The notes under the pieces are model-generated. The model ran no database searches, was not told where the DNA came from, and saw nothing but the letters and a program-made list of their open reading frames with translations. A stretch of DNA of 64,000 bases, from positions 6,788 through 70,787 of the forward strand of contig JALWDU010000092.1 in the NCBI GenBank assembly GCA_027036735.1, given 5' to 3'. Numbering within the stretch: the stretch's first letter is position 1; each line of letters begins with the position of its first letter. The position numbers were made by a program, and so were the translations under genes. Shown here piece after piece: positions 37,458-64,000 of the stretch. Origin of the DNA: Aquificales bacterium. Its GTDB lineage: Bacteria > Aquificota > Aquificia > Aquificales > QOAS01.

Positions 37458-37468
37458 ACTAACCTTTA

Positions 37469-39296: not shown

Positions 39297-39321
39297 GAGG
39301 CTGAAACTTAGGTTTTGGTTT

Positions 39322-39879: not shown

Positions 39880-40048
39880 TTAACCTCTCCTCCATTTTCT
39901 TAGGGTCGTTAAGAGTCCCAATCCATTCTTCAACTTCCGGGTCCGTTTCGAATTTTATAGGTTCCTCGTGTTCCAAAGCCCACATAAGCTTTTCCCAAGC
40001 CTTTTCGTCAACTTCTATGTGAAGTCTAAGTATTTGTTTGCCCTCCAT
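39821..40048 (-). CDS. hypothetical 75-aa protein upstream of the GNAT-like gene
   Basis: ORF only. It overlaps the GNAT-like ORF by 59 nt and has no obvious RBS. Confidence 0.3.
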   Translation of the reverse strand: MEGKQILRLHIEVDEKAWEKLMWALEHEEPIKFETDPEVEEWIGTLNDPKKMEERLNELKQFLKRAMEAERLNEK

Positions 40049-40168
40049 AGGGAAAAAATTATGGCGGAAAGCGTTTAAATTTTAGAGATGGCACAGAATT
40101 CTAAGAAAAGTATGCTAAGCGAGTTTTTTTAAAGGTAATCCTTTATCGGGGAAGTTTTGAAGATGTAG

Positions 40169-40264
40169 GTTTTTATGTCCCTATAAGGGATTGAAACCGA
40201 TTTGGCTATCGAAGGTGGGACTGAAACCTCTATTAGCTTTTATGTTCCTATGAGGGATTGAAAC
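40169..40264 (+). CRISPR. mini-array 3 (2 repeats, 1 spacer-like 38-nt segment)
   Basis: Repeats at 40169 (GTTTTTATGTCCCTATAAGGGATTGAAAC, identical to the last repeat of array 1) and at 40236 (GCTTTTATGTTCCTATGAGGGATTGAAAC). The spacer itself contains GGGACTGAAAC (40217-40227), a 10/11 match to the repeat 3' end. Confidence 0.7.
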
Positions 40265-40624
40265 AGTTGATTTTTTCAAAATAAACTTTTCCACTCTCTC
40301 ATAGTATTCTTTAACCTTTTCCAAAACTACATCAAAGGAAACATTTTTTAGTCCAAGTTCGGGAACGGTGTAAAAACCGGGGATGGAAAAGTTTTTAGTT
40401 TTTTCAGAAAGATATTCCAAACCTCCTATAGGTCTATCGCCATATAGCTCTATATAAAGGTATAGAATTCTTCCCTTCTCGTCAGCGGCTAAAGAAAGTT
40501 CGGGGATATCTTCGACTAACTCTTTGTAAAGTTCCTCCGCTCGGTCAAAATCTTTGTCTTTAGCTTTATGACTATCAAGTTCTACACCATCTAAATAAGG
40601 CTCGGGGGTAAAGTGTAATTTCAT
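40181..40624 (-). CDS. hypothetical protein whose 3' end reads into CRISPR mini-array 3
   Basis: 147-aa ORF. The last ~28 codons (40181-40264) are the reverse translation of repeat and spacer sequence, so the native C-terminus is probably lost. Confidence 0.4.
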   Translation of the reverse strand: MKLHFTPEPYLDGVELDSHKAKDKDFDRAEELYKELVEDIPELSLAADEKGRILYLYIELYGDRPIGGLEYLSEKTKNFSIPGFYTVPELGLKNVSFDVVLEKVKEYYERVEKFILKKSTVSIPHRNIKANRGFSPTFDSQIGFNPL

Positions 40625-40641
40625 AACAATTTTAATATTAG

Positions 40642-40689
40642 GTTTTTAAGTCCCTGAAAAGTTAGATTTAAAAAGAAGGGGATTGATTA
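40642..40689 (+). repeat. degenerate CRISPR-repeat remnant
   Basis: GTTTTTAAGTCCCT (40642-40655) matches the repeat 5' half at 13/14 positions. AAGGGGATTGA (40676-40686) resembles the repeat 3' half. Confidence 0.45.
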
Positions 40690-40713
40690 GAGATTTTGAA
40701 GAGGTGGGCATAG

Positions 40714-41040
40714 ATGAAGGAATACGAAAAATTGCTTATAGATTACGCCAAATACTTAAGTATTATGAAAGATGAAGCAAAGGAGTATGCGAAGACGCTT
40801 TCAGGGGAAAGTTACTATCTCATAATTAACGACCTTCCCACCATAGAAAGGATGAAGCAGAGATTGTTAAAATTGCTCCCTAAAGCTCATCAAAAAGAAA
40901 TCCTTTCCAAATTAGCTAAAAATGAATTTGAAATTTATCGAATTCTGCAGAATACACCCTTAGCCAAACCTTTTGCGGAAGCGGTAAAGCTTAACCTTCA
41001 TCATCCATCGCCGGCCACCGTGGTAAAAGCCAAATCTTAA
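40714..41040 (+). CDS. hypothetical protein (108 aa)
   Basis: ATG with a GAAGAGGTGGG RBS and no recognisable motif. Confidence 0.45.
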   Translation: MKEYEKLLIDYAKYLSIMKDEAKEYAKTLSGESYYLIINDLPTIERMKQRLLKLLPKAHQKEILSKLAKNEFEIYRILQNTPLAKPFAEAVKLNLHHPSPATVVKAKS

Positions 41041-41042
41041 AC

Positions 41043-41426
41043 CTAATAATCCTCCCAACTTTCAACTTTCCATTTCGGTTTTTCCTCAAAAACCTCAAAC
41101 CTTTTGAGGTAGAAATTCCTTTCCAAATACCAAGAGGGGAAAAAGTACCACTTATCCCCTTCGGAGTAATCCCAAGAAAAACAAACCGCCGAAAAGGTTT
41201 TCATAAAATAAAAAGGCTCTAAAAGTCTTTCTATTTCCGAAAAGGGGAGTTCGTTAGCCCATTCCCTAAGGGTTTCGTCTTTTGCATCCGCAACTTTTGA
41301 GAGTATTTGAAGTAAAAATTCCTCCGAGAGTTTATCTTCCTTTAATTCCAAATCGGAAAAGGTTAAACCCCTTACCGCAACCCTTTCCTCGTAAGGAGAA
41401 GCCAAATACCCCAAAAGAACCAGCAT
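41043..41426 (-). CDS. hypothetical protein (127 aa), translationally coupled to cas6
   Basis: Its ATG (41424-41426) overlaps the cas6 stop TAA (41426-41428) as TAATG. No recognisable motif. Confidence 0.55.
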   Translation of the reverse strand: MLVLLGYLASPYEERVAVRGLTFSDLELKEDKLSEEFLLQILSKVADAKDETLREWANELPFSEIERLLEPFYFMKTFSAVCFSWDYSEGDKWYFFPSWYLERNFYLKRFEVFEEKPKWKVESWEDY

Positions 41427-42166
41427 TAAACCCTTATTTTTGCGGGCAAAACCATTCCGAAACCGGCGCTATTTTTCGCACCCAAACCGGTTTCAAATGC
41501 CAACTTCAGTACCTCTTTAGGGGCTTTTATCCTATATATCCCTTCCCAAGCCTTTATTAAGGTTCCTTTAAACACCACCTTTTTGAAATCCCTTCCTGAC
41601 ACCTTTACGGGTTCTATTTCTATTTCACCCTCAAAAGGTCTCCCATAAACGAGCATAAATTTCTTTTTAAGGTTTTCCCTTAAAAGTCTGTAAAATTCCT
41701 CCTCGTGAGGTGTTAGGTAGTTAAAAAACTTACTCCCCGGTTCGGTTTTATAGACCACTATAGGGGAAAGGGTTTTAACCTCAACCTCTTCGGGGATTTC
41801 TTCCAAAACTACCGCTTCCACATTTAGGAGCTCTAGTTTATTTTCACCCAAAAAGAGGTCTTTGTTTTCCAAAATCACCTTTCGGAGGGTGGAAATACTC
41901 ACCTCATTTTTGGGAGAGGCGAAATATATCCTAAATGTGGGTTTGTAATAGACATATTCGTTGTCCTTTTTGAGGAATTTCCCGAAAATTTTTGAGAACG
42001 TAAAGAGTTTAAACTTCCTCTTTCCGAGCTCGTAGCCCCTATCGTGCAAAAAGGTTGCGATTTGTTCGTCCATATTCTTGTAGAAGAAAGCCTGCAGTAG
42101 GCGGTTGTAATGTTTGGGAAGTTTCAAAGCCGCGCCTTCGGCGCGGAATACGAATTTCAAAATCAT
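41426..42166 (-). CDS. cas6: CRISPR-associated endoribonuclease Cas6
   Basis: 246 aa. The C-terminal glycine-rich loop ETGLGAKNSAGFGM and overall size are typical of Cas6. Confidence 0.88.
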   Translation of the reverse strand: MILKFVFRAEGAALKLPKHYNRLLQAFFYKNMDEQIATFLHDRGYELGKRKFKLFTFSKIFGKFLKKDNEYVYYKPTFRIYFASPKNEVSISTLRKVILENKDLFLGENKLELLNVEAVVLEEIPEEVEVKTLSPIVVYKTEPGSKFFNYLTPHEEEFYRLLRENLKKKFMLVYGRPFEGEIEIEPVKVSGRDFKKVVFKGTLIKAWEGIYRIKAPKEVLKLAFETGLGAKNSAGFGMVLPAKIRV

Positions 42167-42330
42167 AGTGTCAGATTTCTATCATACCGCCCGTTCTATA
42201 GTGACCTCCTCCCCACATCTTTGATGTGGGGCTTCCCGCTTCATCGTGGGCAGAGCCCACTCCACGGGCGTCACTTCCCCGCGGTCCACGGGTAGGGCAG
42301 ACTTTAGGCGGTCTGCCAGCGCCTTATTCT
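42150..42330 (-). ncRNA. putative TnpB guide RNA (omega/reRNA) scaffold overlapping the tnpB 3' end
   Basis: Called by analogy with IS200/IS605 TnpB elements. On the minus strand I see stems GGCAGAC..GTCTGCC (42286-42307) and CCCCACATC-AAA-GATGTGGGG (42211-42231). The extent is a guess. Confidence 0.25.
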
Positions 42331-43602
42331 TCTTTGCTAACTGCTTTAATCCAATCTTTAATATGTTCCACGCTCCATTTAAGTCTCTATCAATTTCTAA
42401 ACCGCATTTCGGACATTTATAAGTTCTCTCATTTAATCCAATTCGTTGTTTAAAACCACATCTACAGCAATTTTGCGTTGTTGCTTCGTATTTCGGCACA
42501 AATTCCACAAGGATAAGGGTCGCAAGGTATTTTAGCCTTGCAGTTATTCCCCCTATCCCTGTGTTTTGAACTTCTTTCCCAAACAATCCTTTGTGCCAAC
42601 CTTTTATGTCATCTCTTTGAACCGCTATAAACGGAAACCTCTTCAAGTAGCTTATTACCTTATTTATCGTATCCTTCCTTCTGTTTTTGATATATTCCCA
42701 TTCCTTCTGTATCAACTTTTTAACCTTTTGATAGTTTTTGCTCCCTTTCCTCTTTCTTACCAAAATCTTTTGCAACCTTTTAAGCCTCTTCGTTTCGGGA
42801 ATATACCACTTAAACCTCTCCCCCGTTGTTAAGGTTAGCTGGTATTTAATACCTAAATCTATACCTACTGGAATTGAAGTCTGTTTTTGCTTAATTTCCC
42901 TTAAAACTTCCTCTCTCCAAAGATAGCAAACCACATATAGATAAAAGCCCGAAGGCTTTTTAACCAGAAAAGCGTTTACAATCTCTGAATTTTTAGGTAT
43001 CTGATGCAATCCCAAAACTCTAAACCACTTTCTAATGCCTTGAACTTTAATTCTATTCCTTTCGAAGTCTATTTTGTAGGTAATCCCGAATTGCTTAAGA
43101 GGAATGCTTTTAAAATCGGATTTAAATTGGAGCTTTCCTACCTTATAACCTTGCTCTTTTAGAGTTTTTAAAGCTTTAAGGCTATTTTTAATCCTTTCAA
43201 TAATGCCTTGTTTAACTTGAGAACCTAAGAGTTTAAGTTTCCTTTTTTCAAAACCGTTAGGAGTTTTAATTTCTACCACTTTAAGTTTTTCGGATAGTTT
43301 GTTTAATCGGCTGTCAATATCTGCGATGAGGTAGTTATAGAACCATTTAGCCTCTAAGAAAAGTCTTTCTAAGGTTTTTATATCGGATTTAGAGAGGTTT
43401 TGGAGTTTTAGTTGGAAGACTTTGGGAGTTTGGAGTTTTCTTTTTTCCTTGGTTTGTTTAAGTGATTGCCTGATTTTTTCGGCTTTAGTCATAACTCCAA
43501 ACTCCCTTAAATAAGTATTTTAAAACCTATCGGCCGCCATTCATCCCCGCAAGTCGGATAGGGGACTTTCTGGCGTGATTTTCCGTAAATAGGAGCGGCA
43601 AA
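42167..43602 (-). mobile_element. tnpB-only IS200/IS605-like element (IS1341-type), ends not defined
   Basis: It fills the whole interval between the cas6 ATG (42166) and the cas8b ATG (43603). No tnpA is present, and I could not define the LE/RE hairpins confidently. Confidence 0.45.
42182..43492 (-). CDS. tnpB: IS200/IS605-family TnpB (OrfB) RNA-guided nuclease homologue
   Basis: 436 aa. RuvC-I VGIDLG, zinc finger CCRCGFK..CPKCGLEIDRDLNGAWNI, and a C-terminal tail typical of thermophile OrfB proteins. The RuvC-II position reads IAVQRDDIKGW. Confidence 0.9.
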   Translation of the reverse strand: MTKAEKIRQSLKQTKEKRKLQTPKVFQLKLQNLSKSDIKTLERLFLEAKWFYNYLIADIDSRLNKLSEKLKVVEIKTPNGFEKRKLKLLGSQVKQGIIERIKNSLKALKTLKEQGYKVGKLQFKSDFKSIPLKQFGITYKIDFERNRIKVQGIRKWFRVLGLHQIPKNSEIVNAFLVKKPSGFYLYVVCYLWREEVLREIKQKQTSIPVGIDLGIKYQLTLTTGERFKWYIPETKRLKRLQKILVRKRKGSKNYQKVKKLIQKEWEYIKNRRKDTINKVISYLKRFPFIAVQRDDIKGWHKGLFGKEVQNTGIGGITARLKYLATLILVEFVPKYEATTQNCCRCGFKQRIGLNERTYKCPKCGLEIDRDLNGAWNILKIGLKQLAKKNKALADRLKSALPVDRGEVTPVEWALPTMKREAPHQRCGEEVTIERAV

Positions 43603-49864: not shown

Positions 49865-50469
49865 CAAAACCTCCCCAGCTCCCTTTGGAGGTATGCCATC
49901 AGCTCCCTAACCTGTCTCTCCGTTTCCTCCAAACTCCCACTGTTGTCTATAACGAAATCGGCGAGCTCCCTCTTTCGGTCTATATCGAGTTGCTTTTCCC
50001 AACGGCGGTTGAAATCCTCTTCGGTCATTCCCCTCCGGAGTGCCCTTTTTTTAGCCACCTCTTTGGGCGCATATACCAAAACGGTGTAGTGAAACCTGTT
50101 TTGGTTGCCCTTTTCGAATATCAGAGCCGCCTCGAGGACGCATATTCCTCCCCTTTCCCTGCAAAAGTTCTCGTATTCCCTATAGACCTCCGGGTGGAGT
50201 AGGTTTTCGAGCCACTTCAGGAGGTCGGGGTTTTTAAACACCCTTTCGGCGATTTTTTTCCTATCGACCCTCCCATCGGGGGTCAGAATATCCTTTCCCA
50301 ACTTTTGCAGGAGCTTTTGCTTTATATCTTCCCTCTCGAGGAGTTTGTGAACGACCTTGTCCGCATCGAGGACGTTGGCGCCGTATTTTTCCATAAGCTT
50401 GGCGACGGTGGACTTTCCCGTGCCTATATTGCCGGTTAGACCTATTTTGAGAGCGCAATTCGCCGACAC
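49861..50469 (-). CDS. coaE: dephospho-CoA kinase
   Basis: IGLTGNIGTGKSTVA P-loop; GTG start. Confidence 0.9.
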   Translation of the reverse strand: MSANCALKIGLTGNIGTGKSTVAKLMEKYGANVLDADKVVHKLLEREDIKQKLLQKLGKDILTPDGRVDRKKIAERVFKNPDLLKWLENLLHPEVYREYENFCRERGGICVLEAALIFEKGNQNRFHYTVLVYAPKEVAKKRALRRGMTEEDFNRRWEKQLDIDRKRELADFVIDNSGSLEETERQVRELMAYLQRELGRFC

Positions 50470-50551
50470 CGCAACCCTCCGAAACTTGCCACTTTTGGTT
50501 AGTATAATTTTTTATCGGTTAAAAATTTTTTTGGCACCAAGGGGGAATATA

Positions 50552-52579
50552 ATGCAAATTACCTATCGGTTTTCCGAAGAAGAGAAAAAATTTTTCGAAG
50601 TATATCGCCAACTATTGGAAAAATATTCCGATAACCTTCAAAAGTTAAAGCTTTTTTTGGAGCTAAAGGCTTTGGATTTGGGTATAGAAAACCCCGATGA
50701 GGTTATAGAAAAAATACATTCCTTTTTGAGGGATTACATCTTTTTTAAAGACCGTAGAGAGGAACTAAAGGAAATCCTTCCCATAGATGATGAATTTTTA
50801 AAAACCTTGGAAAGGTATCCCTACTTTGTGGAATACCGTATCGGTTATGCCTTTCCCACCGAAGCGGTTTATGGCGGTTTCAAGTGGAGGGAACCCTTTA
50901 TTATTGCCGGTGGAATAGACGGAAAGGTTAGGATTTGGAGATACGACGATGGAAAACTTCGATACCTTTTCGATATCGGGGAAAAGCATACCGGTTTCCC
51001 CGCCTACGAGCTCTATAAAGACCATCTTTTCTATTCCGTAGGTTCGACCTTAAAGGTTTTCTATCTACCGAGCGGGAAGCTGGTTGAGGAGATAGATGTG
51101 GGTCAACCCGTAGCGGCTTTAAACCTGGAAGAGGGCGGTAATTTATACCTTTACAAGCGTTTCGGTCAGTTGGCTATAAAGCAAAGGATAGACCTCGATA
51201 GCGGTAAGGTTGAATTCGGTCCCGCCGACCCGGTGGCGCTCACCTCGGTGGAAACCGGCGAAACCGATATGGTGGCGCTCGGAAAAAACCTATTGAAACT
51301 GAAGAAGGGAAGGATTTTATTATTCCGCGGAAAGAAAGAAAGTAACGATAAAAAGCTGGTAAAGGAAAACGCCTTCAAACTGAATTTCCCCATAAACGAT
51401 ATTTACGTCTTGGGAAGCTCCGCGATTTTGGGCACCGACGGCGCCCCTCCCCAAATAGTAGACCTGCAAACGGGTGAAATTTTGGGAACCCTCGACGTGC
51501 CGGTGGTTCACTCCTTTAGGATAAGGAAAAATCCCGTAAGGGATGAGCTCGCCATATCCCACAGCGACAACCTGATATCGATTTGGGACATAAAAACCCT
51601 GGAGAATATCAAGCTTTTGGAAAGCTACTTTATTGACGTTTTGGGATTGGATTACTCCCCCGACGGGAAACTGCTCGTCGCCGCCGGTGAGGGTAGGGAT
51701 ATAAACGTGTGGGACACCGAAAGTTGGGAAATGGTTAAAGATATAGATTTCGACTTCGAGGGTGTTACCGCCCTGAAATTCTCGCCCGACGGCAAATACC
51801 TGGCGGTGGGAGGAGGCGACAACAATATCTACCTGCTATCCACCTCCGATTGGAGCGTTGTTAAAACCCTTTCCCAACATGAGGACTTGATTTCCGACCT
51901 CCTCTTTGTGGATGGAAAGTTGGTTTCCGCCGGATGGGACGGCAAGGCGTTGGTGTGGAACCTGGAAAGGGGAGAGGTAGAACAGGTATTGCAAAACTCC
52001 GACCAGAGGGTTTGGAAGCTGGCGCTTTCGCGCGATGGCGGTCTCCTAGCGGTGGCGGACTGGGAGGGGAAGGTAAATATATACAAAACCGATACGTGGG
52101 ATTTGGTGGAAACCTTTGAGGACAAAAGTGGGGTCACGGCGGTCGCCTTCGGCGAAAACCTCCTCCTCATCGGCAGAAAGGACGGAACCCTCGAGGTGGT
52201 AAAGATAGAGCCTAAGGAACTCGAAGAGGTTGTTGAAAATATTTCCGCAAATCCCTCGGAGGAGGTGGAGGGAATAACCACCTTCGGCGGCAATATACTC
52301 GTCTACACCAAAAGGGGTAGGCTCGGCATATGGAACCCCCAAGGGGAAAGGGTATTCTCCGCAACCGTCGAGGGTCTAAAAGATGCCGATAGCTTGAGGA
52401 CACCGCGGTTGGAAACGAAAGTCCTACCCGATACCTTCATCGTCAGAAGGGAAAACAACTTCTACGGCGCCAAGGGGTGGGACAACTATATCAACATCCT
52501 CAAAGGGTTGGAAATCGTGGAGAAAAAGGAACCCTTCCTGGAGGTTATAGCGGAACCCAAACTCCTCGAGGAGTTATGA
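50552..52579 (+). CDS. WD40-repeat protein (675 aa)
   Basis: Repeated ..GKV.IW.., ..ISIWD.., ..INVWD.. and ..ALVWN.. blades. The ATG at 50552 is preceded by GGGGGA. The upstream part of track ORF 50357 is antisense to coaE. Confidence 0.8.
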
Positions 52580-53790: not shown

Positions 53791-54600
53791 ATGGTTAAAG
53801 TTGCCGTATCGGGCGCGCTCGGAAGGATGGGGAGACGTATCCTCAACATAGCCCACGAAGACCCCCAAGTGCGGATATGCGGTGCTATCGAAAGTCCCCA
53901 AAACGCCCAAAAATATAGCGACCTCGGAGAGGCTCTAAACGACGATAGGTTTAAGGGTATTCCCCTTTCCGACAACGCCGAAGAGATTTTGAAAAACTGC
54001 GACGTTTTAATAGAGTTTGCCAACTCAACCAAAGCCGCCTTGGAGCATACGGAAAAGGCGGTTGGACTCGGCAAGAAGGTGGTTGTGGGAACCACCGGTT
54101 TTTCCAAAGAAGAATTGAAAAAGCTTGAGGAATTGGCTAAGAGGGGCACGGTTCTCTTTTCGCCCAATATGAGTCTGGGGGTCAACCTACTCTTTAGGTT
54201 GGTCGAGATAGCAACCCGCGTTCTAAAGGACAAGGATTTCGATATCGAAATAGGGGAGATTCACCATAGGTTTAAAAAGGATGCCCCTTCGGGGACTGCG
54301 ATGAGGTTAGCCGAAATAGTCGCCAAGGAGCTAGGCGTAGATTTGGAGGAGGCGGCCGTTTACGGGCGTAAGGGACATTACGAGAGGGCTAAAAACGACA
54401 TAGGAATAATGACCTTTAGGGGCGGGGATGTGGTAGGAGAACACACCGTTTACTTCTTCGGCTTCGGCGAGAGGTTGGAACTGACCCACAGGGCTACCAA
54501 CAGGGATATTTTCGCCAAAGGTGCGATTATCGCCGCAAAGTGGATAGCCGACAAGGAACCGGGAAAGCTCTACAACATGTTTGACGTTTTGGGGATTTAA
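53791..54600 (+). CDS. dapB: 4-hydroxy-tetrahydrodipicolinate reductase
   Basis: VKVAVSGALGRMGR..EIHHRFKKDAPSGTA.. Confidence 0.93.
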   Translation: MVKVAVSGALGRMGRRILNIAHEDPQVRICGAIESPQNAQKYSDLGEALNDDRFKGIPLSDNAEEILKNCDVLIEFANSTKAALEHTEKAVGLGKKVVVGTTGFSKEELKKLEELAKRGTVLFSPNMSLGVNLLFRLVEIATRVLKDKDFDIEIGEIHHRFKKDAPSGTAMRLAEIVAKELGVDLEEAAVYGRKGHYERAKNDIGIMTFRGGDVVGEHTVYFFGFGERLELTHRATNRDIFAKGAIIAAKWIADKEPGKLYNMFDVLGI

Positions 54601-54624: not shown

Positions 54625-57600
54625 CTAGAGGAAAAACTCCAACATATTCACCTCGGAAGAGAAAACCAGATTTCCACCCCTTAGGAAGTTTGCATTTACC
54701 TCATCGAAGAGGTGTTTATCCAAATCGGTAATCCCGAAAGGTTTTTCATATTTTTGCCCCCTTTGGGGATGGAAGTTTCCCGTTTCACCCAGAAAGGAGC
54801 TAAGCAGAAACCTCAACTTGGAGGGAATATCCAAATTTACAACTCCATCGGGTGAAAATCCTTCGTAATCCCAGGCGAGGGGAGGGATTAACAAAACCCT
54901 ATCGACCTCCGAAGGGGTTAAGTCGATATGTTCAATTCTCCCCCTTTTGAGTAAATCCTTTAAAGGTTTCAGTCCCAGCGACAGTTTCGGCTCACCCTTC
55001 TCTATCTCCTCCAAGAGTTTTAGGAGATACCTCTTCCTCTCGGGGGTTATTTCGAATTCCGTCCTAACGAGGGAGGTGGAAAGGACAAAATTGTGTCCCT
55101 TCACCGTTAGAAACTCAAAAAATTTCCCATCGGGGAGTTTCAAGTTTAGGAAATCCCTTAGAGTCTTTGCCTTTTGAACCTCCTCAAAGAGTTTGAAAAT
55201 AGAGGCGATACTTTCGGGGGGTAGATTAAACCTAACCCTCAAAAGGGATTCGTCGAGTTCGTTTGCCAAAACAGCCGCCTTATCCCTTACCTCCCCTTTG
55301 GCGGTCTTTTGAATCTGCCACAAGACCCTTTTGGGAGAACTTATCCTCCTCTCAAACTCCTTTAGGGGGTGAAAGACCTTTTCCCTCTGAACCCCTACGG
55401 GGACTACTTTTAAAACACTCTCCCCTTCCGCGGTTCGAATTAAGGTTCCACCGCAGGTAATGGTAAATAGGGAAGACCTCAAAAGGGTTGCCAGTTCAAA
55501 ACTTTTAGCCCTTCGGTGGATAGGGACTCTTTTTCCTTCCCTCTCTAAGGGGAATACGAAAAATATCCTCCTCTTGCCGTCCTCTAAATGTTTTCCTCCT
55601 ACTCGGTCGCGTCCCCTAAAGAGGGCTTGAACCAATTCGGTCAAGTTGTTTTCCACCGAAAAGTCGGGCATAACCGCTATGTAGGTGTCTATAAGGGGAA
55701 AGGTGAGTCCCCGCGAAGCGGAAGAGGTTGCCAAGATTAACCTATACCTTTGAGAGTCCAAATCCTCTTCCCTCTCGCTCAAAGAGTGGATAACCAAAAC
55801 CTCTTCTTCCTCCAATAGTTTTTCCCTTTTGGTCACAACCTCTTTGAGTTTTTCAAGTTGCTTTTTGTCCTGCCAAAAGAGGAAAATCTGCTGGCTTCCC
55901 TTTCGGAGGAAACTTTTAACGAGTTTCACCAAGTAGGGAACGAGTTCCTTGCTTTTGTCCCCAAAGGGGTGAAAGTCGTAAATAATCTCAAGCTCCCCCG
56001 CGGGGAAACCTACCGCATCTATGGCGGTGAAGTTTATTCCCCCTTTAATGGGAACCTTTGCGGTCTGAATCCCTCCCAAATTCTCCACTTTGGGTTGGGT
56101 GTCTATATAAACGACCGGTCTCTCGTCGGTATCCTCCGCAAAGGTTTTAAAGACCTCAAACCCCTTTAGGGAGGCGTCCAAAAGTGCGAAATAAAACCTT
56201 AGGTTTAATTCTTTCTCCGCAACCTCTTGGAGTTGCTTAAACCACTCCTCCCCAACAAAGTGTCTGAAGAGAAACCTACCCGTTTCCGAGCCGGTTATCT
56301 CGTCCATTACAAAGACGATGTCCCCAATGCCGTTGGAGATAAAGCGCTTTTCCAAAAGTCTCTTTAAATCCTTAGGAATTTCCCCACCGAAGGTGGGGCT
56401 TTGGTATTTGTCCAAAAAGAAACTTCTTATATGGTCAAAGGTGCTTCCCCCGTCTTTGCGCTTCACGACCGCTTGGGTGGCAAAGGCTACGAGTATCTCT
56501 TTACCCTTTAGGGGTTTGTTTTCATCCTCCAAAAGGTGGGCTACCGTCTTTAACAACCTGTTTAGGACTCCCCTTTCTCCCAACCTCCGGTCGGAGCTGG
56601 TCGTATAGGTTACCTCCCTAACGGTGGAATACCTTTCATCCTCCTCCGAATGGTTTCCCAACCTTTTGAGCTTTACCTTTCCGAGTTTGGGAATATTCAC
56701 CTCCTCGGGAAGGGAAAAGTTTTCCTCCCTTGAGAGGTAAAAGACCGTATCGGGATGCTCCGATTGGGTGTAGAAGGCAACCATGTTTTTGTTGTTCTTG
56801 CACCACTTTTCTATTAGGGAGGTGTTTAAAAAAGTCCTCGGAGAGGTGTAGAGAATTAGGCTATTTTTCCCAAAGAGTTCAAAAATAGTCGTGGTTTTTC
56901 CTATACCGGGAACCCCCAAATTGGCAACCCAACGGGAGTTTTTCAAAACCTCTCGGAAAACCTTTTTGTGTTTCTTCCTTTTTTCCAAATTCAAACGGTA
57001 TTCCTTACCTATCTTCCAAACCTCTTTTAGGATTAGATGCTCATCGCTATTGGTCTTTAGGGGTTGAATTTCTACCTCTATCCCCTTTACAGGTGAGTTT
57101 AAATTCATAAAAAACTTTTGGAGTTTCCCTGTGTATTCCTCCATAAAGCGGTTTCCGTTTTTATCGCTTCCACTTACGGAGGAATAGATTTCCCTCGCTT
57201 TCCCCAAAAGGTTCAAAACTTCTCTAAGTTCCACCTTTGGGGAAAAACTTATCTGCGAGACCTTGTGGAGTGTTATACCGAATACCCTAAGCACTACGGG
57301 AGTTTTTTCGTCGATTATCCCCTTTTGGAGGAGAAGTTTTAAATACTCCCCCGCGTAGGAGCTAGCCTGAACGAGCTTTGCGACCTCTCTATTCTTCCAC
57401 TCCAAAAGTTGGAAAAATTCCCTTAACCTTTCGGGGTCTTCGGTTTTTAATTCCAATAACTTGTTTAGGAGCTCTTTAAAATTTCCCCCACCCTTTAGGT
57501 TTATCGGTTTGAAAAGATAACCTTGGGCTACCCCTTTAAGGTCGGTGTTGTAAATCCTCGTTAAACCGCTCTGGTATAGGTCGGGGGAGTTTAATAAGTC

Positions 57601-58110
57601 GTATCCCCCAAAGAGGTCGCCTGCGCCGTATAAACTCAAATCCGCAACCGTTATATAGTGCAATTTCTCCTTGATGGTAAAGTGCAAGACTAAATCCACA
57701 TGTAGGAGAGACCCCTTTTCATCTTTAGTGAATTCCCCAGAAAGGTTGCCAAACTTTTCCCCAAACCTTTGGAGGAAAAAGTCTTGGTCGTCCTCAACGG
57801 GGATAGGTTTCCCGTAGTAGAAAAACACCGCCAGATGGATATTTTTCAAATCCTCCAAAAGTTTCTTTCCAAATGTATACCCTTGGGTGAAGTAGGTAAA
57901 TAAAACCCTTGAAAGGGATTGTTTGAAAAGTTCTGTAATCCTCGAATCGGAAAAGATGTTTAACGCATAACCTATAAGGGGATAATTTTCAAATTCCTTC
58001 AACCAATAGGGGTAGAAATTTAGGTTTTCTTTTAAAACCTTTAAAAGTCCGATATTGAAAAGAGACTCGTAGAGGTAGCCGAGTTTTCTTTTTTCTTTAT
58101 TAGAGGACAT
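54625..58110 (-). CDS. large P-loop NTPase / SF1-like helicase with a ~380-aa unknown N-terminal region (1161 aa)
   Basis: Walker A NLGVPGIGKTTT (56890-56916), Walker-B-like VFVMDEIT (~56299-56310), and late motifs ILATSSASRGLTF and LVQALFRGRDR, which resemble SF1 motifs V/VI. No obvious RBS. Confidence 0.72.
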   Translation of the reverse strand: MSSNKEKRKLGYLYESLFNIGLLKVLKENLNFYPYWLKEFENYPLIGYALNIFSDSRITELFKQSLSRVLFTYFTQGYTFGKKLLEDLKNIHLAVFFYYGKPIPVEDDQDFFLQRFGEKFGNLSGEFTKDEKGSLLHVDLVLHFTIKEKLHYITVADLSLYGAGDLFGGYDLLNSPDLYQSGLTRIYNTDLKGVAQGYLFKPINLKGGGNFKELLNKLLELKTEDPERLREFFQLLEWKNREVAKLVQASSYAGEYLKLLLQKGIIDEKTPVVLRVFGITLHKVSQISFSPKVELREVLNLLGKAREIYSSVSGSDKNGNRFMEEYTGKLQKFFMNLNSPVKGIEVEIQPLKTNSDEHLILKEVWKIGKEYRLNLEKRKKHKKVFREVLKNSRWVANLGVPGIGKTTTIFELFGKNSLILYTSPRTFLNTSLIEKWCKNNKNMVAFYTQSEHPDTVFYLSREENFSLPEEVNIPKLGKVKLKRLGNHSEEDERYSTVREVTYTTSSDRRLGERGVLNRLLKTVAHLLEDENKPLKGKEILVAFATQAVVKRKDGGSTFDHIRSFFLDKYQSPTFGGEIPKDLKRLLEKRFISNGIGDIVFVMDEITGSETGRFLFRHFVGEEWFKQLQEVAEKELNLRFYFALLDASLKGFEVFKTFAEDTDERPVVYIDTQPKVENLGGIQTAKVPIKGGINFTAIDAVGFPAGELEIIYDFHPFGDKSKELVPYLVKLVKSFLRKGSQQIFLFWQDKKQLEKLKEVVTKREKLLEEEEVLVIHSLSEREEDLDSQRYRLILATSSASRGLTFPLIDTYIAVMPDFSVENNLTELVQALFRGRDRVGGKHLEDGKRRIFFVFPLEREGKRVPIHRRAKSFELATLLRSSLFTITCGGTLIRTAEGESVLKVVPVGVQREKVFHPLKEFERRISSPKRVLWQIQKTAKGEVRDKAAVLANELDESLLRVRFNLPPESIASIFKLFEEVQKAKTLRDFLNLKLPDGKFFEFLTVKGHNFVLSTSLVRTEFEITPERKRYLLKLLEEIEKGEPKLSLGLKPLKDLLKRGRIEHIDLTPSEVDRVLLIPPLAWDYEGFSPDGVVNLDIPSKLRFLLSSFLGETGNFHPQRGQKYEKPFGITDLDKHLFDEVNANFLRGGNLVFSSEVNMLEFFL

Positions 58111-58164
58111 GGATTAGTTATAGATATATCAAAGGGAAAAAGAAATTTTGAGAAACCTACAATG

Positions 58165-58440
58165 TTATTCGTTTCTATATAAGCTCGCTACACAACTACC
58201 GCAGATATTGATACCAGATAAAACTTGAAGGCTATGAGCTACGGCTATGGCTTCGCTTTTGGATAAATTTTCTAAAAGTTTTATTTTTTTTAACCGACGC
58301 TTTCCTTCAGCATCAGTGGAAGTTATTTTCCAAATGCCCATTTTCTTACAACTCTCTTCATCTATTTTCCCACATAACGCCCATCCATCATCTAAAATAT
58401 GAACCACTCCTGTCTCATAAACACAAAAAGTGTAGCCCAT
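58165..58440 (-). CDS. hypothetical Cys-containing protein (91 aa from ATG; 121 aa from TTG at 58530)
   Basis: The ATG at 58440 has AGGGGG 9 nt upstream. It carries a C-terminal CGSC. Lies in AT-rich DNA. Confidence 0.4.
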   Translation of the reverse strand: MGYTFCVYETGVVHILDDGWALCGKIDEESCKKMGIWKITSTDAEGKRRLKKIKLLENLSKSEAIAVAHSLQVLSGINICGSCVASLYRNE

Positions 58441-58873
58441 TGTTACGTACCCCCTAATAAAATTTGTTTTCCTAACAAGCAATTTATCAAGAAAGTCTTT
58501 TGATATCAATCTTATTTGTATAATCTTCAAATTAACCTAAATTGTTTTAATAGTTATAACCCGCATGGGTGAATCCTTTAAGGAGTTAGGAAAGTGATTT
58601 TTCAATGTTTCTCTACTAATTGTGGATGCTTTAATCATCCAACCATTTGTGAAAGGCTCTTTATCCAAAAATTAGTAGGTATAGGATTACTAACAACCTT
58701 TATAGGTCTAGCATTTAGGATTTTCCTTTATTTGAATAGGAAATAAGCTAACCAATAAGGTTTACTTAACGAATTTTATGCTCTTTATCGCTTTATTTTT
58801 TGGAATGTTAGGTTTGTATGAACTTAGAAGGAAAGGGAAAACTTAGAAGATAATTAAAATAGACATTTGTAAG

Positions 58874-59098
58874 CTATAATCCTTTAAATACCTCGTCCGC
58901 GGGTATACCTTCGGTTTTACCTTCTTCCAGTTTTTTTAAGCGTTCTTTCGCTACTTTGGTGCACCAGATAATCTAAGTAAAAGGTTAAAGCTTTGGCTAT
59001 CAATCTACTTTTTTCTTTCCTAGTTTCTTGGATATTCTCTTAAGCTTTCTGGCTAATTCTTCTTCAAGGGTTATATTTAGTCTTTTATTTAACCACCA
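58874..59098 (-). pseudogene. decayed ribbon-helix-helix (CopG/RelB-type) antitoxin
   Basis: My three-frame reading of the minus strand gives ..RLNITLEEELARKLKRISKKLGKKK / SRLIAKALTFYLDYL.. / ..LKKLEEGKTEGIPADEVFKGL*. The frame breaks sit at homopolymer runs 59009-59014 and 58931-58937, and there is no clean start codon. Confidence 0.5.
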
Positions 59099-59139
59099 TG
59101 AGTGTATATTAAGACAAAATAATTATATTATAAAGAAAA

Positions 59140-59961
59140 TTATTTTAAGGTAAACACATAGTTTATAAAGCTATAAAACTTATTTTTCCATATTGGATTT
59201 TCTATCTTATTATTAGCCCCACACCAAAGAATCATATCGAATAATCGGGGTAAAGGATATCTATAACTGTTTTCGAGATAAGAAGACAAAATAATGTTGT
59301 TTATACGAAAGTTATATACCCAAATATTTAAAGCACTAAAACCTTTTTCATTCGCAGGTAATCCTAGAAGATTCATTATAGGATTATCAAAGGCTATAAA
59401 AATATCAGGTCTAAGATAATGCAAAATTTTCGCTATCATAACAGGTTCATTAATTTGTGCTTTATGAGTTTGAATTAATAAATTTTGAAAATGTAAAAAG
59501 CTATTAATAAAAAACCCTAGATTGGGAATAAACTCAAAAGAAATCACTTTTTGAAGAACCTGAGATATTTGATTAACAGGATTTTTCCACATATTTACAA
59601 AATTTTGAAAATCTCCATTATACCTTCTAATGAAATTTTTATTTTTAAATCTTTTTATTTGCCAACTTAATAAAACTGGTAAAATAGCATCAAAAAAAGT
59701 AAAATTTGAAGTGGTAAGGTTGTTAACATAATTTGAAATAGTATTATTCCATAAATTCCTTTTATCTAGATTGTAATAATTAAAACTTTGTAGAAATCTT
59801 TGTAATGTCTGAATATTTTCTTGCTGTATTTGTTGATTTCTTAGAAGATACAAAAGTTCTTGTGTTAATAAATAATCCTCATCTCCAGTGATACTGGAGT
59901 TTTTAAACCAGTTGACACATACTGTTATAAGGTTTTCTAAATCTTCTAAATTGAATAACAT
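59140..59961 (-). CDS. hypothetical protein (273 aa), very AT-rich, Asn/Ile/Phe-rich
   Basis: Uninterrupted ORF with an ATG start 11 nt after the exonuclease stop. Composition differs clearly from its neighbours. Confidence 0.55.
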   Translation of the reverse strand: MLFNLEDLENLITVCVNWFKNSSITGDEDYLLTQELLYLLRNQQIQQENIQTLQRFLQSFNYYNLDKRNLWNNTISNYVNNLTTSNFTFFDAILPVLLSWQIKRFKNKNFIRRYNGDFQNFVNMWKNPVNQISQVLQKVISFEFIPNLGFFINSFLHFQNLLIQTHKAQINEPVMIAKILHYLRPDIFIAFDNPIMNLLGLPANEKGFSALNIWVYNFRINNIILSSYLENSYRYPLPRLFDMILWCGANNKIENPIWKNKFYSFINYVFTLK

Positions 59962-59972
59962 AATTTTCTATT

Positions 59973-60761
59973 TTAATTTGATTTGTTCAAATTCAAACAC
60001 CCCTTGCACACCCTAATCTCCCTAAAGCGGAAACCTCCGTTTTCCTTCCTCTCGGGGTAAGTTATAACAGCCAATTCCTCTATAGGTTTTTCCATTTCAC
60101 ATTTCTCACAACGGAGGGCAGAAAACTTTTCCACCGCGGAGTGGTTGTTTAGAAACTTATCCATGTAAGGGTTCCAAATAGTTAAAAGTTCAAACTCCGA
60201 GAGGATATCTATTAAATTGTGTTGCGCTATTAGGTTTAAAGGTTCCAAGTTTCCACTACTTCGGTGTTCCTCCCAAAGGTTTTTAACCTCTCCGCTGTCT
60301 ATGTCCCAATCGGAAAAACCGAAGTAGTGGAAAAATCTCGGATGTATCAACTCTCGGAGTTTGGGAGTTTTATGCCACCTCTTTAGGTCTCTTATTTTGT
60401 AGGTGATACCCATTGCGGGTTTCATTATTTCTTTAACCTGCAATTGGATACCTAAATGGGTTCTAAGCCATTCACCTTCAAAGGGGGCGTTGTAGGCGTA
60501 AAACTCCTTTTCCCGTGCAAGTTTTTCTATAAACCTTTTGAGTTTGGAATAAAAATCCTCCTTGCTTAGTTTTTTGGTTCTCAAAAGCACAATTGCGGTT
60601 TTTCCGTAAACGAAGCCTCCGCAAATGATTTCTCCCTTTTGCGGGTTGTAATCGGTGGTTTCGAAGTCCAAAACAACCCCTTCGAAGTTTACTTTTGGGT
60701 GCAACTCCAAAAGGATGTAGTAGAGTCCATCTCCATTTAGTTTGCCGTTTACCAAAACCAT
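59973..60761 (-). CDS. RNase-H-fold DEDDh-type 3'-5' exonuclease with a C-terminal zinc ribbon
   Basis: Exo I VVLDFETTD, Exo II-like FYAYNAPFEGEWL, Exo III AQHNLIDILSEFE (H-x4-D), and C-terminal CEKCE..CKGC. Confidence 0.62.
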   Translation of the reverse strand: MVLVNGKLNGDGLYYILLELHPKVNFEGVVLDFETTDYNPQKGEIICGGFVYGKTAIVLLRTKKLSKEDFYSKLKRFIEKLAREKEFYAYNAPFEGEWLRTHLGIQLQVKEIMKPAMGITYKIRDLKRWHKTPKLRELIHPRFFHYFGFSDWDIDSGEVKNLWEEHRSSGNLEPLNLIAQHNLIDILSEFELLTIWNPYMDKFLNNHSAVEKFSALRCEKCEMEKPIEELAVITYPERKENGGFRFREIRVCKGCLNLNKSN

Positions 60762-60783
60762 TTGTTTTGCTAATTATATTAAT

Positions 60784-63700
60784 ATGGTTTACCAACTAAG
60801 AGAGGAACCCCAAAGGTGTTTAACTCTAAAGGATGAAGTTTTCAAAAAATTTATAGAACTGTTTAAGGAAAAATTGAAAAAGCAATCCTCTTTTAGGAAC
60901 GGGAAAGATATTTTTAATTTTTCCAAAGAGGTGGCGATAGAGTTCGAAAAGAGATTTCCAAAAATATCCGAAGTTTTTAACGGAAAACCCTACGATTGTA
61001 AAAAATTCTTTGAGATTTTTACGGAAAGACAGTTGGCGGAAATAAGAAAACTCTCAAAGGAAATTTCCATAAATGCGGAGTTAAAAACTTTTAAGGAATC
61101 CTTAGAGGAGTATATAAAACAAAACTTTGAACTTTTCAAAAAACGTCTAAAGGCGGAGGGATATACCGAGGAAGAAATAAAGGAAGCTTGGGAGAAAAAT
61201 TTCAAATACTTTGAAGAGTTGATAAAGGAAGATACAACCTACTACACCCGAATAGCCTCTTTGAGGATAAAGGATAAAACGGAAAAACCCAACGAATCCG
61301 ACCCCTACTTTTTGACTTATCTATTGGTGTTTGAATTGGAAAAAAGCTCCCGTTCGGAGGAGTTTAAAAACCTAAAGGAATACCTTTTTAGGGGGAGGAT
61401 TGAGTCGGTTGAGGAAACTCTAAAGGAATTGGTCGCTCAAAAGTGGGAGAGTAATGTTGACGAATTGTTAGCAGACCTCGGTATAGTTGACGAGGCTTTT
61501 GACAACAAATGGGAGGAAAAGAGGGAGGATATTCTTAAAATCGTTGAAGACCTGTTCGATGCAATAGATTCCACCGTAAGGAGCAGAATAGAGGCGGAAC
61601 ACTTTAGGGATTTAATAGAGTTTGCCAAAGAGAGGATTGAAAACGAAAATCTACTGGAAACTTTAAAGGTTATAGAAGAAAACTTAAACCTCTTGAGGGA
61701 AATTTACGAAAATAATCCCGATTTGGGAAACATTCTTGTTGAAGCAATCCCCGTAGGGTTTGAATTTTGGGACAAGATAACCGATTACGCGGTTGAGAAA
61801 GACTTTAGGCACTTCCTATACACCTACAAAATGAAAATTAACGATATTGCGGAGGGGGCTATAGAAAATCACTTGTTAAAACCCAAGTGGGTTAAATTAC
61901 CCGACATAAAAACCCGTGCAGATTACTTTATCGCCCAAGGGATACTTTTTAAGGAAATTGTTAGGAATTTGGATAAGGCTATAGAAGACTTGGGAACAGA
62001 TGCGGTTAAAAAACTTCCCTCTTACCTAAAGGGTTTTATAAAAGCACTCTTCTATTACGGGAAGGCGGATATAGAAACCCTTAAGGGGTTTTATAACTAC
62101 TACGAACAGGTTCAAGTTATAGTCTCCGATTGGTTGGCAAAAAGGAGTGATGAAAGAACCTTTAGCGAAGCGGATAGGGAATTTTTAACCCGAATAGGGG
62201 ATGAAATTGAAAGATTACTCCCACCGTTGGAAGGAAACAAAGAACGATTTGAGGAACTTTACGGATATATAGCTCAAAACCTAATAAAGGAATTTGTTGA
62301 AAAGGTTCTACCCTCCAACGGTAGGGAGCTTTTCGTCGCGGTGGATTTCCCTTCCTTGGCGGGGACTATAAAAAGACTCCTTTCGGAGGAAGAAAAACAA
62401 TCCAAAACCCACATATACAGGGGGCTCTTGAAGGTTTTAACCCAAAAGGAGGAGCTGAAAAATTTTGAATACATCTTTAGGGTAAAAAATGCCGTTCAAA
62501 ACCACTTATTGGATTTGGATAGAGAGGTTTCCCCTAAATTGGAGAAATTGAAACCTATAAAAGACCTGAAAGAGTTTTTTACCTTAACGGCGGAACTATC
62601 GGAGGAAAGAATTCCAAGCAACGGACAAACCTACAAATTGGGATTTATTTTAAGTTTCCTTTTGCTAACCTCACTAATAGCCTCGCGAAGCGGGGGAATT
62701 TTAGAGGGTTTCTCTTTACCCCATTCCACCAACAAGGGCGAGGATTTAAAGATAGACAAATACAGGGATTTACTCTATGCACTTGTAGGGGCTTCGGTTT
62801 TTGCGATAAATTCCGACAAAGTAGCGGCGGTTCAAAACTTTAATTGGAGTAATGTATTTAAAAAAGAACCTTTTAGAAAAGATAAAAATAAAAATCTCTA
62901 CAAGGCTATAAATAACCTTCTAAATACCCGTTTGTTGGTGAACAGTAAAATTAAAAACGGCTTAACCTCCCTCTATTCCAACCTACCCTTTGAGGTTGAA
63001 GGTTTAAACCTAAACCAAAAGATGGCAATTTTGGCGCTTTCCCACCCTGCGAAGGTGGATAAAAACTTAAAAGCCGTTCTGGGGGAAGCCTACATTTTTG
63101 AACCTATCAAGGGAAAGGATTTATTTAATACCTCCAAAGGTGTAAGAGTTTTTAGGAAAACCTTTAGTGGTGTTTACAGCTTTATAGAAAAAGACCAAAA
63201 AGGGGAATTCGCGGATTACAAGACCATTTTGAGTGATTTTCTAAAAACTTTAAAGAAACTCGGGGTGGAAAAGGTCTATTTAATTCCACCTTTACCCATA
63301 TATAGGGGTTTATCAACAAAGGAGGACTTTTTAAGAGAGCTCTATTTCTCCGACCTACTTGCGGAGGTTGGGGAGGAAATTGAAATACCTCTAAGGTTGG
63401 TTTTCTCGAGCTTCGGAATAGTTTATACCCCCGAGCTAAGCAACTTCAAAAGGAGAATAAAGGATTTTCTGAAAAAGGAAGGTTTAATTATTAAAACGGA
63501 CAAGAAAGTAGAAGAAAAGAGGGGAATAATAGCGGTAAACCTGTTTAAAAATATTGAGAAAATAACCCCGCGAAGCGGGGCTATGCCTTTTATAACACCG
63601 AAATTTGCGATAATTCCGCTCTTTTCTATGGAGGAAAGCGTTGAAAAGACCCTATTCCACCACGCATTTATATACTCCGTTCCCAACCACCGACTCTTTG

Positions 63701-64000
63701 AGGGAGTCCATCCCGAAAAATTGTTCCTCCGAGAGGAAGAAAAAAGCGAATTGGCTAACCTTTTAAGTGTGGTTCATTTAATCCAATACCAAAAGGGAGA
63801 GGAGTTGAAAAAGTCCAATAAAAGGGTAGGTTGGGAAAAGACCTTTAAGAGGAACCCCTTTTATGTGCTTCCCGAAAGGAGGAGCGGAGATAAAAATATC
63901 CTCGCCCTTACGGAGGTGGATATTTTCTTTAACTCCGAAGCCCGTCCGAGGTTACAGACCGTTTTAACCGCCTTTAGGTTGTGGGATGCGGTTAGAAACC
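60784..64000 (+). CDS. very large hypothetical protein (>1072 aa, runs off right edge)
   Basis: Absent from the ORF track because it has no stop in the window. I translated from the ATG at 60784 to position 64000 without meeting a stop (MVYQLREEPQRCLTLKDEVFKKF....TVLTAFRLWDAVRN). I saw no P-loop or other motif I recognise. Confidence 0.8.
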   Translation, partial: MVYQLREEPQRCLTLKDEVFKKFIELFKEKLKKQSSFRNGKDIFNFSKEVAIEFEKRFPKISEVFNGKPYDCKKFFEIFTERQLAEIRKLSKEISINAELKTFKESLEEYIKQNFELFKKRLKAEGYTEEEIKEAWEKNFKYFEELIKEDTTYYTRIASLRIKDKTEKPNESDPYFLTYLLVFELEKSSRSEEFKNLKEYLFRGRIESVEETLKELVAQKWESNVDELLADLGIVDEAFDNKWEEKREDILKIVEDLFDAIDSTVRSRIEAEHFRDLIEFAKERIENENLLETLKVIEENLNLLREIYENNPDLGNILVEAIPVGFEFWDKITDYAVEKDFRHFLYTYKMKINDIAEGAIENHLLKPKWVKLPDIKTRADYFIAQGILFKEIVRNLDKAIEDLGTDAVKKLPSYLKGFIKALFYYGKADIETLKGFYNYYEQVQVIVSDWLAKRSDERTFSEADREFLTRIGDEIERLLPPLEGNKERFEELYGYIAQNLIKEFVEKVLPSNGRELFVAVDFPSLAGTIKRLLSEEEKQSKTHIYRGLLKVLTQKEELKNFEYIFRVKNAVQNHLLDLDREVSPKLEKLKPIKDLKEFFTLTAELSEERIPSNGQTYKLGFILSFLLLTSLIASRSGGILEGFSLPHSTNKGEDLKIDKYRDLLYALVGASVFAINSDKVAAVQNFNWSNVFKKEPFRKDKNKNLYKAINNLLNTRLLVNSKIKNGLTSLYSNLPFEVEGLNLNQKMAILALSHPAKVDKNLKAVLGEAYIFEPIKGKDLFNTSKGVRVFRKTFSGVYSFIEKDQKGEFADYKTILSDFLKTLKKLGVEKVYLIPPLPIYRGLSTKEDFLRELYFSDLLAEVGEEIEIPLRLVFSSFGIVYTPELSNFKRRIKDFLKKEGLIIKTDKKVEEKRGIIAVNLFKNIEKITPRSGAMPFITPKFAIIPLFSMEESVEKTLFHHAFIYSVPNHRLFEGVHPEKLFLREEEKSELANLLSVVHLIQYQKGEELKKSNKRVGWEKTFKRNPFYVLPERRSGDKNILALTEVDIFFNSEARPRLQTVLTAFRLWDAVRN

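Follow-up and report, generated by a model that had tools for sequence, protein, structure and literature searches.

Directly beyond the dapB gene of an Aquificales bacterium (GenBank assembly GCA_027036735.1, contig JALWDU010000092.1), a stretch of 64,000 nucleotides, which is referred to here as the window, carries a cassette encoding a large helicase of superfamily 2 (SF2), a DEDDh 3'-5' exonuclease and a partner protein of more than 1000 amino acids (aa). The evidence tips somewhat towards a conserved cassette that has spread horizontally and whose products act on nucleic acids, for which defence-type DNA interference is a plausible, if unproven, function. The actual unit is a two-gene core of helicase and partner, which is widespread in cyanobacteria. 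The exonuclease is an add-on of the Aquificota, and an HNH nuclease stands in its place on an Acinetobacter plasmid. As judged from the sequences, the cassette is apparently previously undescribed, and both core families are without functional annotation in the sources queried.

Genes and proteins of the cassette

The cassette comprises the following open reading frames (ORFs) and regions; positions are those of the window, homologous loci are given by number (L001 and so on), and AF2 stands for AlphaFold 2.

53791-54600: dapB (Pfam DapB_N and DapB_C); the cassette begins directly beyond it
54625-58110, minus strand: SF2 helicase, 1161 aa, whole gene (ORF and translation)
54625-55560, minus strand: helicase C-terminal region, aa ~851-1161; mixed alpha/beta in the AF2 model, without family match
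55561-56970, minus strand: helicase SF2 motor core, aa ~381-850; invariant motifs and Helicase_C match
56971-58110, minus strand: helicase N-terminal domain, aa 1-380; putative PD-(D/E)xK / RecB-like nuclease variant, judged from its residue pattern and the strand order of the model
58111-59972: AT-rich insert of 1.86 kb (29% GC) between helicase and exonuclease
58165-58530, minus strand: 121-aa ORF inside the insert; doubtful gene, present in L004 (91 aa according to the gene caller), without family match
59140-59961, minus strand: 273-aa ORF inside the insert, 25% GC; lineage-specific fourth gene
59973-60761, minus strand: DEDDh 3'-5' exonuclease, 262 aa; RNase_H_2 (PF13482) and C-terminal CxxC...CxxC zinc ribbon
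60762-60783: divergent spacer of 22 bp between the start codons of exonuclease and large ORF
60784-64000, plus strand: large partner ORF, 1072 codons within the window; helical N-terminal half, alpha/beta C-terminal half
62629-63912, plus strand: C-terminal half of the partner, aa ~616-1043; homologous to the ~1000-aa ORF upstream of cyanobacterial helicases (hhalign)
63016-63483, plus strand: putative RNase H-like fold of the partner, aa ~745-900; AF2 strand order and weak Foldseek matches, low confidence

A preliminary description of the window had reported the motifs GVPGIGKTT, VMDEIT, ATSSASRGLTF and FRGRDR in the 1161-aa protein and had read them as an NTPase core of superfamily 1 (SF1). 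All four motifs are present in the ORF at 54625-58110 on the minus strand; however, the SF1 assignment is rejected, since the Helicase_C match (aa 729-832, E 1.8e-6), the QxxGRxxR-type motif VI (Q828 and R832-G-R834) and the best Foldseek matches are all those of SF2. For the helicase, 25 homologues were retrieved. The motor motifs read GVPGIGKTT (Walker A), SPR, DEITG, DAS, TSSASRG and QALFRGRDR, and 23 helicase homologues show no variation in motifs I, Ia, II (DEITG), III (DAS), V and VI (QxxFRGRDR). The invariant motor columns of the 23-sequence alignment are P401-T406, S423, R425, D603, E604, D645-S647, T795, R800, G801, Q828 and R832-R834, among which there is no conserved cysteine cluster. 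The AF2 model is of fair quality, with a predicted local distance difference test score (pLDDT) of 78 and a predicted template modelling score (pTM) of 0.70. Foldseek searches with this model retrieved Brr2, HrpA, Mtr4, MrfA, RecQ5 and UvrB at E-values of about 1e-8; the motor thus resembles the Ski2, DEAH and RecQ groups and not XPD/DinG. The sole SF1 signal is a weak match of the Walker A region to SMUBP-2 and Dna2. Pfam scans revealed neither a DUF1998/MZB domain in the helicase nor an SF1 or RecB C-terminal architecture in the helicases.

The region of about 380 aa in front of the motor, which had been set apart before, is indeed a separate domain. Eleven residues (G11, E15, G21, G77, G133, D139, S159, K245, Q248, Y252 and Y309) are invariant in an alignment of 24 sequences, which are 13-61% identical to the window protein and less than 23% identical outside the Aquificota clade. 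The domain follows the pattern E15...D139...D157-x-S159...K245-x-x-Q248-x-x-x-Y252, and in the AF2 model a helix is followed by the strands 93-100, 140-146 and 150-159 and then by a helix bearing K245 and Q248xxxY252. This layout is probably that of a RecB-type PD-(D/E)xK nuclease with a displaced lysine; the motif pattern and the strand order fit a nuclease, but the canonical lysine is replaced by serine.

The frame of the partner is open over 1072 codons (60784-64000, plus strand), as described earlier, and a check for an overlooked stop codon found none. The label of a "giant" ORF does not apply, as its seven homologues comprise merely 1034-1085 aa and the aligned window protein ends 1-7 residues before their C-termini at the window edge; by this alignment, the ORF would stop about 1-15 codons from the window edge, at a full length of about 1073-1085 aa. 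Close relatives of the partner are rare: a search of 5.8 billion proteins yielded only seven, and with a HMMER profile built from the Aquificota partners only 12 close relatives or fragments were retrieved from 1.84 billion representatives. Searches against Pfam, NCBIfam, PADLOC, PHROG and PDB sequences yielded no match for the partner. The AF2 model, which was built from a 7-sequence alignment, is poor (mean pLDDT 52). Within it, aa ~745-900 adopt the order b-b-b-a-b-a-b-a at a local pLDDT of ~50-87. Foldseek weakly matched the partner model to NurA, RNase HI, PIWI of SPARTA/SPARDA/AfPiwi, RuvC and EndoV at E-values of 8e-3 to 0.3, and no match of the model reached E 1e-3. Among the weak matches of high Foldseek probability, these RNase H-like folds score best, and they are interleaved with low-probability matches to helical bundles and coiled coils. 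From this model, the C-terminal half of the partner appears to adopt an RNase H-like (NurA/PIWI-like) fold, which is to be taken as a lead and not as a result. The Aquificota and cyanobacterial partner families do not share a conserved set of acidic catalytic residues; the RNase H-like domain, if the fold is real, would probably be non-catalytic.

The 262-aa protein had been described as a DEDDh exonuclease with a CxxC..CxxC ribbon, and this description is borne out. It matches RNase_H_2 with an E-value of 1.1e-8 and 35.7 bits (gathering cut-off: 22 bits), and D32, E34, E95, H181 and D185 as well as the cysteines C218xxC221...C252xxC255 are invariant in four orthologues. By these sequence features, it can be regarded as a bona fide member of the DEDDh (DnaQ-like) exonuclease family. 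MrfB/YprB presumably belongs to the same Pfam family. In PADLOC, the exonuclease has a single match, which covers 23 residues and is to a CRISPR-associated DEDDh model. The start codons of exonuclease and large ORF are only 22-27 bp apart (window 60762-60783, L001 6285-6306, L003 4919-4945, L094 3779-3805). Such a spacer leaves no room for a leader, which suggests that the transcripts are leaderless or that the promoters are embedded in the respective opposite gene.

While the helicase, the exonuclease and the large ORF of the earlier gene list are real, the insert of 1.86 kb with its 273-aa and 121-aa ORFs had been overlooked. The insert (58111-59972) is absent from L001, L003 and L094, where helicase and exonuclease are directly adjacent. 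The 273-aa ORF is identical in L004 and is found at the same position in L095 (1456-2276) with 75% identity, where it is split into 60 and 197 aa. It has no Pfam, PADLOC, NCBIfam or PHROG match. This AT-rich gene did not belong to the cassette in its ancestral form; it may have been inserted as an accessory or regulatory gene or as a selfish element.

Two further observations on the cluster fared differently. The DNA had been called more AT-rich than the backbone, and a lower GC content was indeed measured (helicase 44%, exonuclease 41%, large ORF 39% and insert 29% versus ~50% in the backbone); the GC content of the cassette is also below that of its own flanks in the window, L001 and L002. 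However, low GC is not unique to the cassette, because a second low-GC stretch, a CRISPR-Cas locus, lies at 34-44 kb. The missing GGAGG-type ribosome-binding site is a weak distinguishing mark, since the neighbouring genes dapB and prfA are likewise without GGAGG. A promoter and terminator scan of the cassette was uninformative.

Distribution and genomic context

The three genes had been proposed to form a conserved neighbourhood, and they do so in six independent Aquificota-type contigs with varying flanks: window/L004, L001, L003, L094, L095 and L097. The identities to the window proteins are as follows.

L004: helicase 98%; the contig cuts the large ORF at 937 aa
L001: large ORF 52%, helicase 57%
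L003: large ORF 36%, helicase 47%
L094: helicase 56%
L095: helicase 71%
L097 (fragment): large ORF 34%

The neighbour on the helicase side is dapB in the window, Prismane in L001 and L095, and NadA in L094. Wherever an Aquificota-type locus contains the large ORF together with its upstream flank, the exonuclease adjoins this ORF; the L002 contig terminates within the gene upstream of the large ORF. In L002 (370-3593), a relative with 82% identity, the partner gene is split into ORFs of 737 and 331 aa, which could be due to a frameshift or reflect a pseudogene. The metagenome-assembled genome (MAG) of L002 is labelled Gammaproteobacteria; its Aq_420 family gene and the synteny with L001 look Aquificota-like. 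Outside the Aquificota, a hidden Markov model of the exonuclease found no copy within 8 kb of 80 loci. A 269-aa gene upstream in L008 was rejected as a counterpart of the exonuclease, as it is not a homologue.

The helicase family is represented in at least 174 GTDB species representatives, most of which are filamentous cyanobacteria. The distant homologues are ~23-25% identical and comprise 1200-1300 aa; beyond cyanobacteria, they are found in Ktedonobacteria, in a Clostridium MAG and on proteobacterial plasmids. In about 78 of the 91 helicase loci fetched, the gene immediately before the helicase is a co-oriented ORF of ~1000 aa, whose stop codon often overlaps the start codon of the helicase, and no further gene family is common to more than 19 of these 91 loci. 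HMMER revealed no connection between the cyanobacterial upstream ORF and the large protein of the window. Using hhalign, however, the two partner families could be aligned colinearly in their C-terminal halves over 332 columns (probability 96.3%, E 1.5e-9), and a second alignment gave a probability of 93.1% and an E-value of 3.1e-7. The motifs common to both families include KIKNGLTSLYSNLP versus KxxNxLSSLYSVLP. The partner encoded on the Acinetobacter plasmid matches the cyanobacterial partner family end to end with a probability of 99.1%. Because of the upstream ORF in most of the helicase loci and its homology to the window partner, the core is taken to consist of two genes. The helicase-partner pair is found in Cyanobacteriota and Ktedonobacteria as well as in a Clostridium MAG and on an Acinetobacter plasmid, and its distribution is patchy, both between phyla and among the cyanobacteria. 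Searched against 5.8 billion proteins, a profile of the cyanobacterial partner had 130 matches; the matches listed are all without functional name or Pfam domain, and one bears an evidently spurious amidotransferase label.

Several copies of the pair reside on plasmids or beside defence genes. One copy is located directly upstream of BREX. Conjugative cyanobacterial plasmids carry copies beside integrase, transposase and TmtA-like genes; on plasmid C of Trichormus variabilis ATCC 29413 (L092 14146-23675), the pair is preceded by a tyrosine integrase and a DDE transposase, and proteins of 828 and 1853 aa with TmtA-like (Tiamat) matches and a DEAD/DEAH helicase are encoded directly downstream. 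On plasmid pYH12207-1 of Acinetobacter piscicola (L093 12619-14625), genes for a PtuB-like HNH endonuclease and a WYL-domain protein come after the distantly related pair, and an HNH/NsnA-like gene and a methyltransferase gene are found upstream. The preliminary description had raised a possible association with known defence genes. It holds for these relatives, which lie beside BREX, Tiamat-like genes with integrase, or HNH and WYL genes, but most chromosomal cyanobacterial copies have housekeeping flanks, and the association is drawn from a sample of neighbours.

The window itself contains a CRISPR-Cas locus of low GC content (38-44%) at 34400-43500, about 11 kb from the cassette, with the following components.

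34400-36970: Cas3
36942-37457: Cas4
37469-38464: Cas1
39000-39296 (5 copies) and 40166-40264 (2 copies): CRISPR repeats GTTCTTATGTCCCTATAAGGGATTGAAAC
41426-42166, minus strand: Cas6
42182-43492, minus strand: TnpB/IS605 OrfB-like gene

One ORF (39322-39879) separates the two repeat blocks, and another (40181-40624) begins inside the second block. Between the block of tRNA-Arg and housekeeping genes and prfA, the window encodes a WD40 beta-propeller protein of 740 aa (50357-52579), which is unusual for a bacterium, yet conserved in L004.

Proposed function and alternatives

The best-supported role that we infer for the cassette is defence against plasmids or phages. It is made plausible by the patchy spread across phyla, the copies on conjugative plasmids, the neighbouring BREX, Tiamat-like, HNH and WYL genes, the deviant GC content, the swapping of the accessory nuclease and, in the window, the CRISPR-Cas locus 11 kb away. 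In such a system, the partner would recognise a nucleic-acid structure or end in foreign DNA and recruit or license the helicase. The helicase would then translocate and cut with its putative N-terminal nuclease domain, and the exonuclease would trim 3' ends, thereby either creating a loading substrate or finishing degradation.

A number of observations weigh against a role in defence or against the folds proposed for it. The N-terminal domain found no match in profile searches against Pfam and PDB, neither core family matches any PADLOC model, and the RNase H-like fold of the partner was called from a model with a pLDDT of 52 and Foldseek E-values no better than 8e-3. The cassettes of the Aquificota are flanked by housekeeping genes, and L001 and L002 have a flavodoxin-murC flank in common, which may reflect vertical inheritance within the L001/L002 clade. 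Furthermore, the cassette is not always complete: in one Aquificota MAG (L005/L012; L005 10001-13561), the helicase stands alone between rpsQ and a tRNA synthetase gene, and on a metagenome contig of 130 kb (Ga0256838_1000024; L096 6810-11315), exonuclease and partner are present with no helicase within 8 kb, flanked by glycosyltransferase genes and cysK/trigger factor. The 132 flanking genes sampled in cyanobacterial loci are mostly housekeeping genes (ZnuA, PurQ, AhpC, TrpE, Dxs), the only recurrent neighbour among them being Uma2 (16 of 132), and no relatives of helicase, partner or 273-aa ORF were found in phage and viral collections. It is because of the housekeeping flanks of most chromosomal cyanobacterial copies and the lack of copies in viral collections that a defence role is worded here as plausible only.

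A more specific version of the defence hypothesis is doubtful but can be formulated: the partner could be a cryptic, catalytically dead Argonaute/PIWI-like (or NurA-like) sensor, which together with a nuclease-helicase of reversed architecture would constitute a DNA-interference system of a new family, directed by guides or by structures; this family would be widespread among filamentous cyanobacteria, thermophilic Aquificota and Ktedonobacteria and on some plasmids, with DEDDh or HNH add-ons specific to the lineage.

The cassette could instead encode a machine for DNA repair or end processing like MrfA-MrfB or AddAB/RecBCD in lineages without those systems, which we consider unlikely. The sizes of the two large subunits are close to those of AddA and AddB, and both the housekeeping genes around chromosomal copies and the lack of copies in phage or viral collections would be in line with repair. 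The pairing of a helicase with a DEDDh exonuclease is also known from mitomycin repair in Bacillus subtilis, where the SF2 helicase MrfA is paired with the DEDDh exonuclease MrfB (PMC11194089, PMC7797055), and the Foldseek matches to the helicase model include MrfA. However, neither MrfA nor MrfB was matched in PDB sequence searches, a DUF1998/MZB domain is lacking, and the cassette has an additional partner of ~1075 aa and an N-terminal nuclease-like domain. A repair function is also at odds with the patchy distribution, the copies on conjugative plasmids beside integrases and defence genes, the varying chromosomal position and deviating GC content, the exchange of the accessory nuclease from lineage to lineage (DEDDh or HNH), and the lack of an SF1 or RecB C-terminal architecture.

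Even less probable is that the cassette belongs to a named system which is too divergent or too recent for the libraries, either as a remote offshoot of the systems that combine Argonaute, helicase and nuclease (DdmDE, pPIWI-RE) or as a system described after 2023. The PADLOC-DB used is the 2023 release, which leaves room for this explanation, as do the weak Foldseek matches of the partner to PIWI and NurA and the logic that the cassette has in common with DdmDE and the pPIWI-RE triad. The preliminary description could not place the cluster in any named system, and the profile searches agree: there is no confident match to such a system in PADLOC, NCBIfam, Pfam or PDB sequences. Helicase, partner, 273-aa ORF and their distant homologues match no PADLOC family at E<=1. 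Scans of all ORFs of the cluster against Pfam, NCBIfam, PADLOC and PHROG gave Helicase_C and RNase_H_2 as the only family assignments, and PDB sequences, searched with the individual proteins as well as with profiles built for helicase, N-terminal domain, partner and exonuclease, yielded nothing meaningful. In the full-text literature, searches for the accessions of the plasmid-borne copies and for candidate systems found no description of the helicase-partner pair and no mention of these accessions.

In the plasmid defence system DdmDE of Vibrio cholerae, an inactive prokaryotic Argonaute (pAgo) recruits the helicase-nuclease DdmD (bioRxiv 10.1101/2024.05.10.593530). Like the core described here, DdmDE is a two-gene module, in which an SF2 helicase fused to a PD-(D/E)xK nuclease is combined with an inactive RNase H-fold (PIWI) partner. 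However, in DdmD an XPD/DinG-like helicase comes first and the nuclease forms the C-terminus, whereas the helicase of the cassette begins with its nuclease-like domain and has a Ski2/DEAH/RecQ-like motor. DdmE is a long-C pAgo, whereas the partner of ~1000-1100 aa has no Piwi/MID profile match. DdmDE membership was rejected because of the reversed domain order and the lack of a sequence match to the solved DdmD and DdmE chains; no Argonaute at all was matched in PDB sequences. The three-gene system pPIWI-RE consists of a restriction endonuclease (REase), a helicase and a PIWI protein (Burroughs et al. 2013, PMC3702460). Its SF2 helicase and its patchy bacterial distribution including cyanobacteria and chloroflexi resemble the cassette, as would its restriction-endonuclease fold and its large protein with a C-terminal RNase H-fold module if the putative folds of the cassette are right. 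In contrast to the latter, its REase is a separate protein, its DinG-type helicase contains an Fe-S cysteine cluster, and its genes invariably follow the order REase-helicase-PIWI. Since the Pfam models Piwi and pPIWI_RE matched none of 42 partner sequences at E<=1 and the helicases have no conserved cysteine cluster, pPIWI-RE membership was rejected as well.

In type III Druantia, the 3'-5' exonuclease DruH prepares DNA for the helicase-nuclease DruE (bioRxiv 10.64898/2026.05.13.724313). A partner gene of ~1000 aa beside a helicase-nuclease (a putative one in the cassette) and a 3'-5' exonuclease are found in both, but DruE is YprA/MrfA-like with DUF1998 and DruH has Ig-like domains, while the exonuclease here is a separate DEDDh protein. 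Druantia, DISARM and the YprA family were rejected, as DUF1998 is absent and none of the helicases tested has a PADLOC match. Hachiman combines the nuclease HamA with the helicase HamB and would resemble the cassette in its PD-(D/E)xK-type nuclease and SF2 helicase, which are fused here if the fold is right; however, there is no PADLOC match to HamA or HamB, and Hachiman has neither a large partner nor an exonuclease. Hachiman, Zorya, Mokosh, Nhi, BREX, Dnd and the other PADLOC v2 systems were rejected, since no signature model matched. NurA-HerA was also rejected, as there is only a weak NurA fold match, no HerA-like gene and no conserved acidic set. The cassette thus differs from each known system of helicase, nuclease and partner in domain order, helicase subgroup or partner family.

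A function for a mobile element, in the replication, partition or transfer of a plasmid or integrative element, could be read from the copies on conjugative plasmids beside integrase and transposase, the low GC content and the inserted AT-rich gene, but is very improbable, given that no integrase, relaxase or replication gene accompanies the Aquificota cassette, that no direct or inverted repeats marking element borders were found to flank it, that no element gene travels consistently with the pair (no other family is common to more than 19 of the 91 loci), and that most of the sampled neighbours are housekeeping genes.

If the cassette acts in defence, it would represent a new helicase-nuclease immunity family that is not recognised by the annotation tools used. 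Filamentous cyanobacteria of ecological importance (Microcoleus, Nostoc, Arthrospira/Limnospira, Planktothrix) commonly encode the helicase family, which also occurs in thermophiles, whose versions would give heat-stable enzymes. If the partner is PIWI-like, the cassette would be a third, independent architecture of the Argonaute-plus-helicase-nuclease theme beside DdmDE and pPIWI-RE. To our knowledge, the lineages carrying the cassette lack RecBCD/AddAB; if the cassette functions in repair, it would fill an end-processing gap in these lineages. Either way, two large families of "hypothetical" proteins would gain a testable function.

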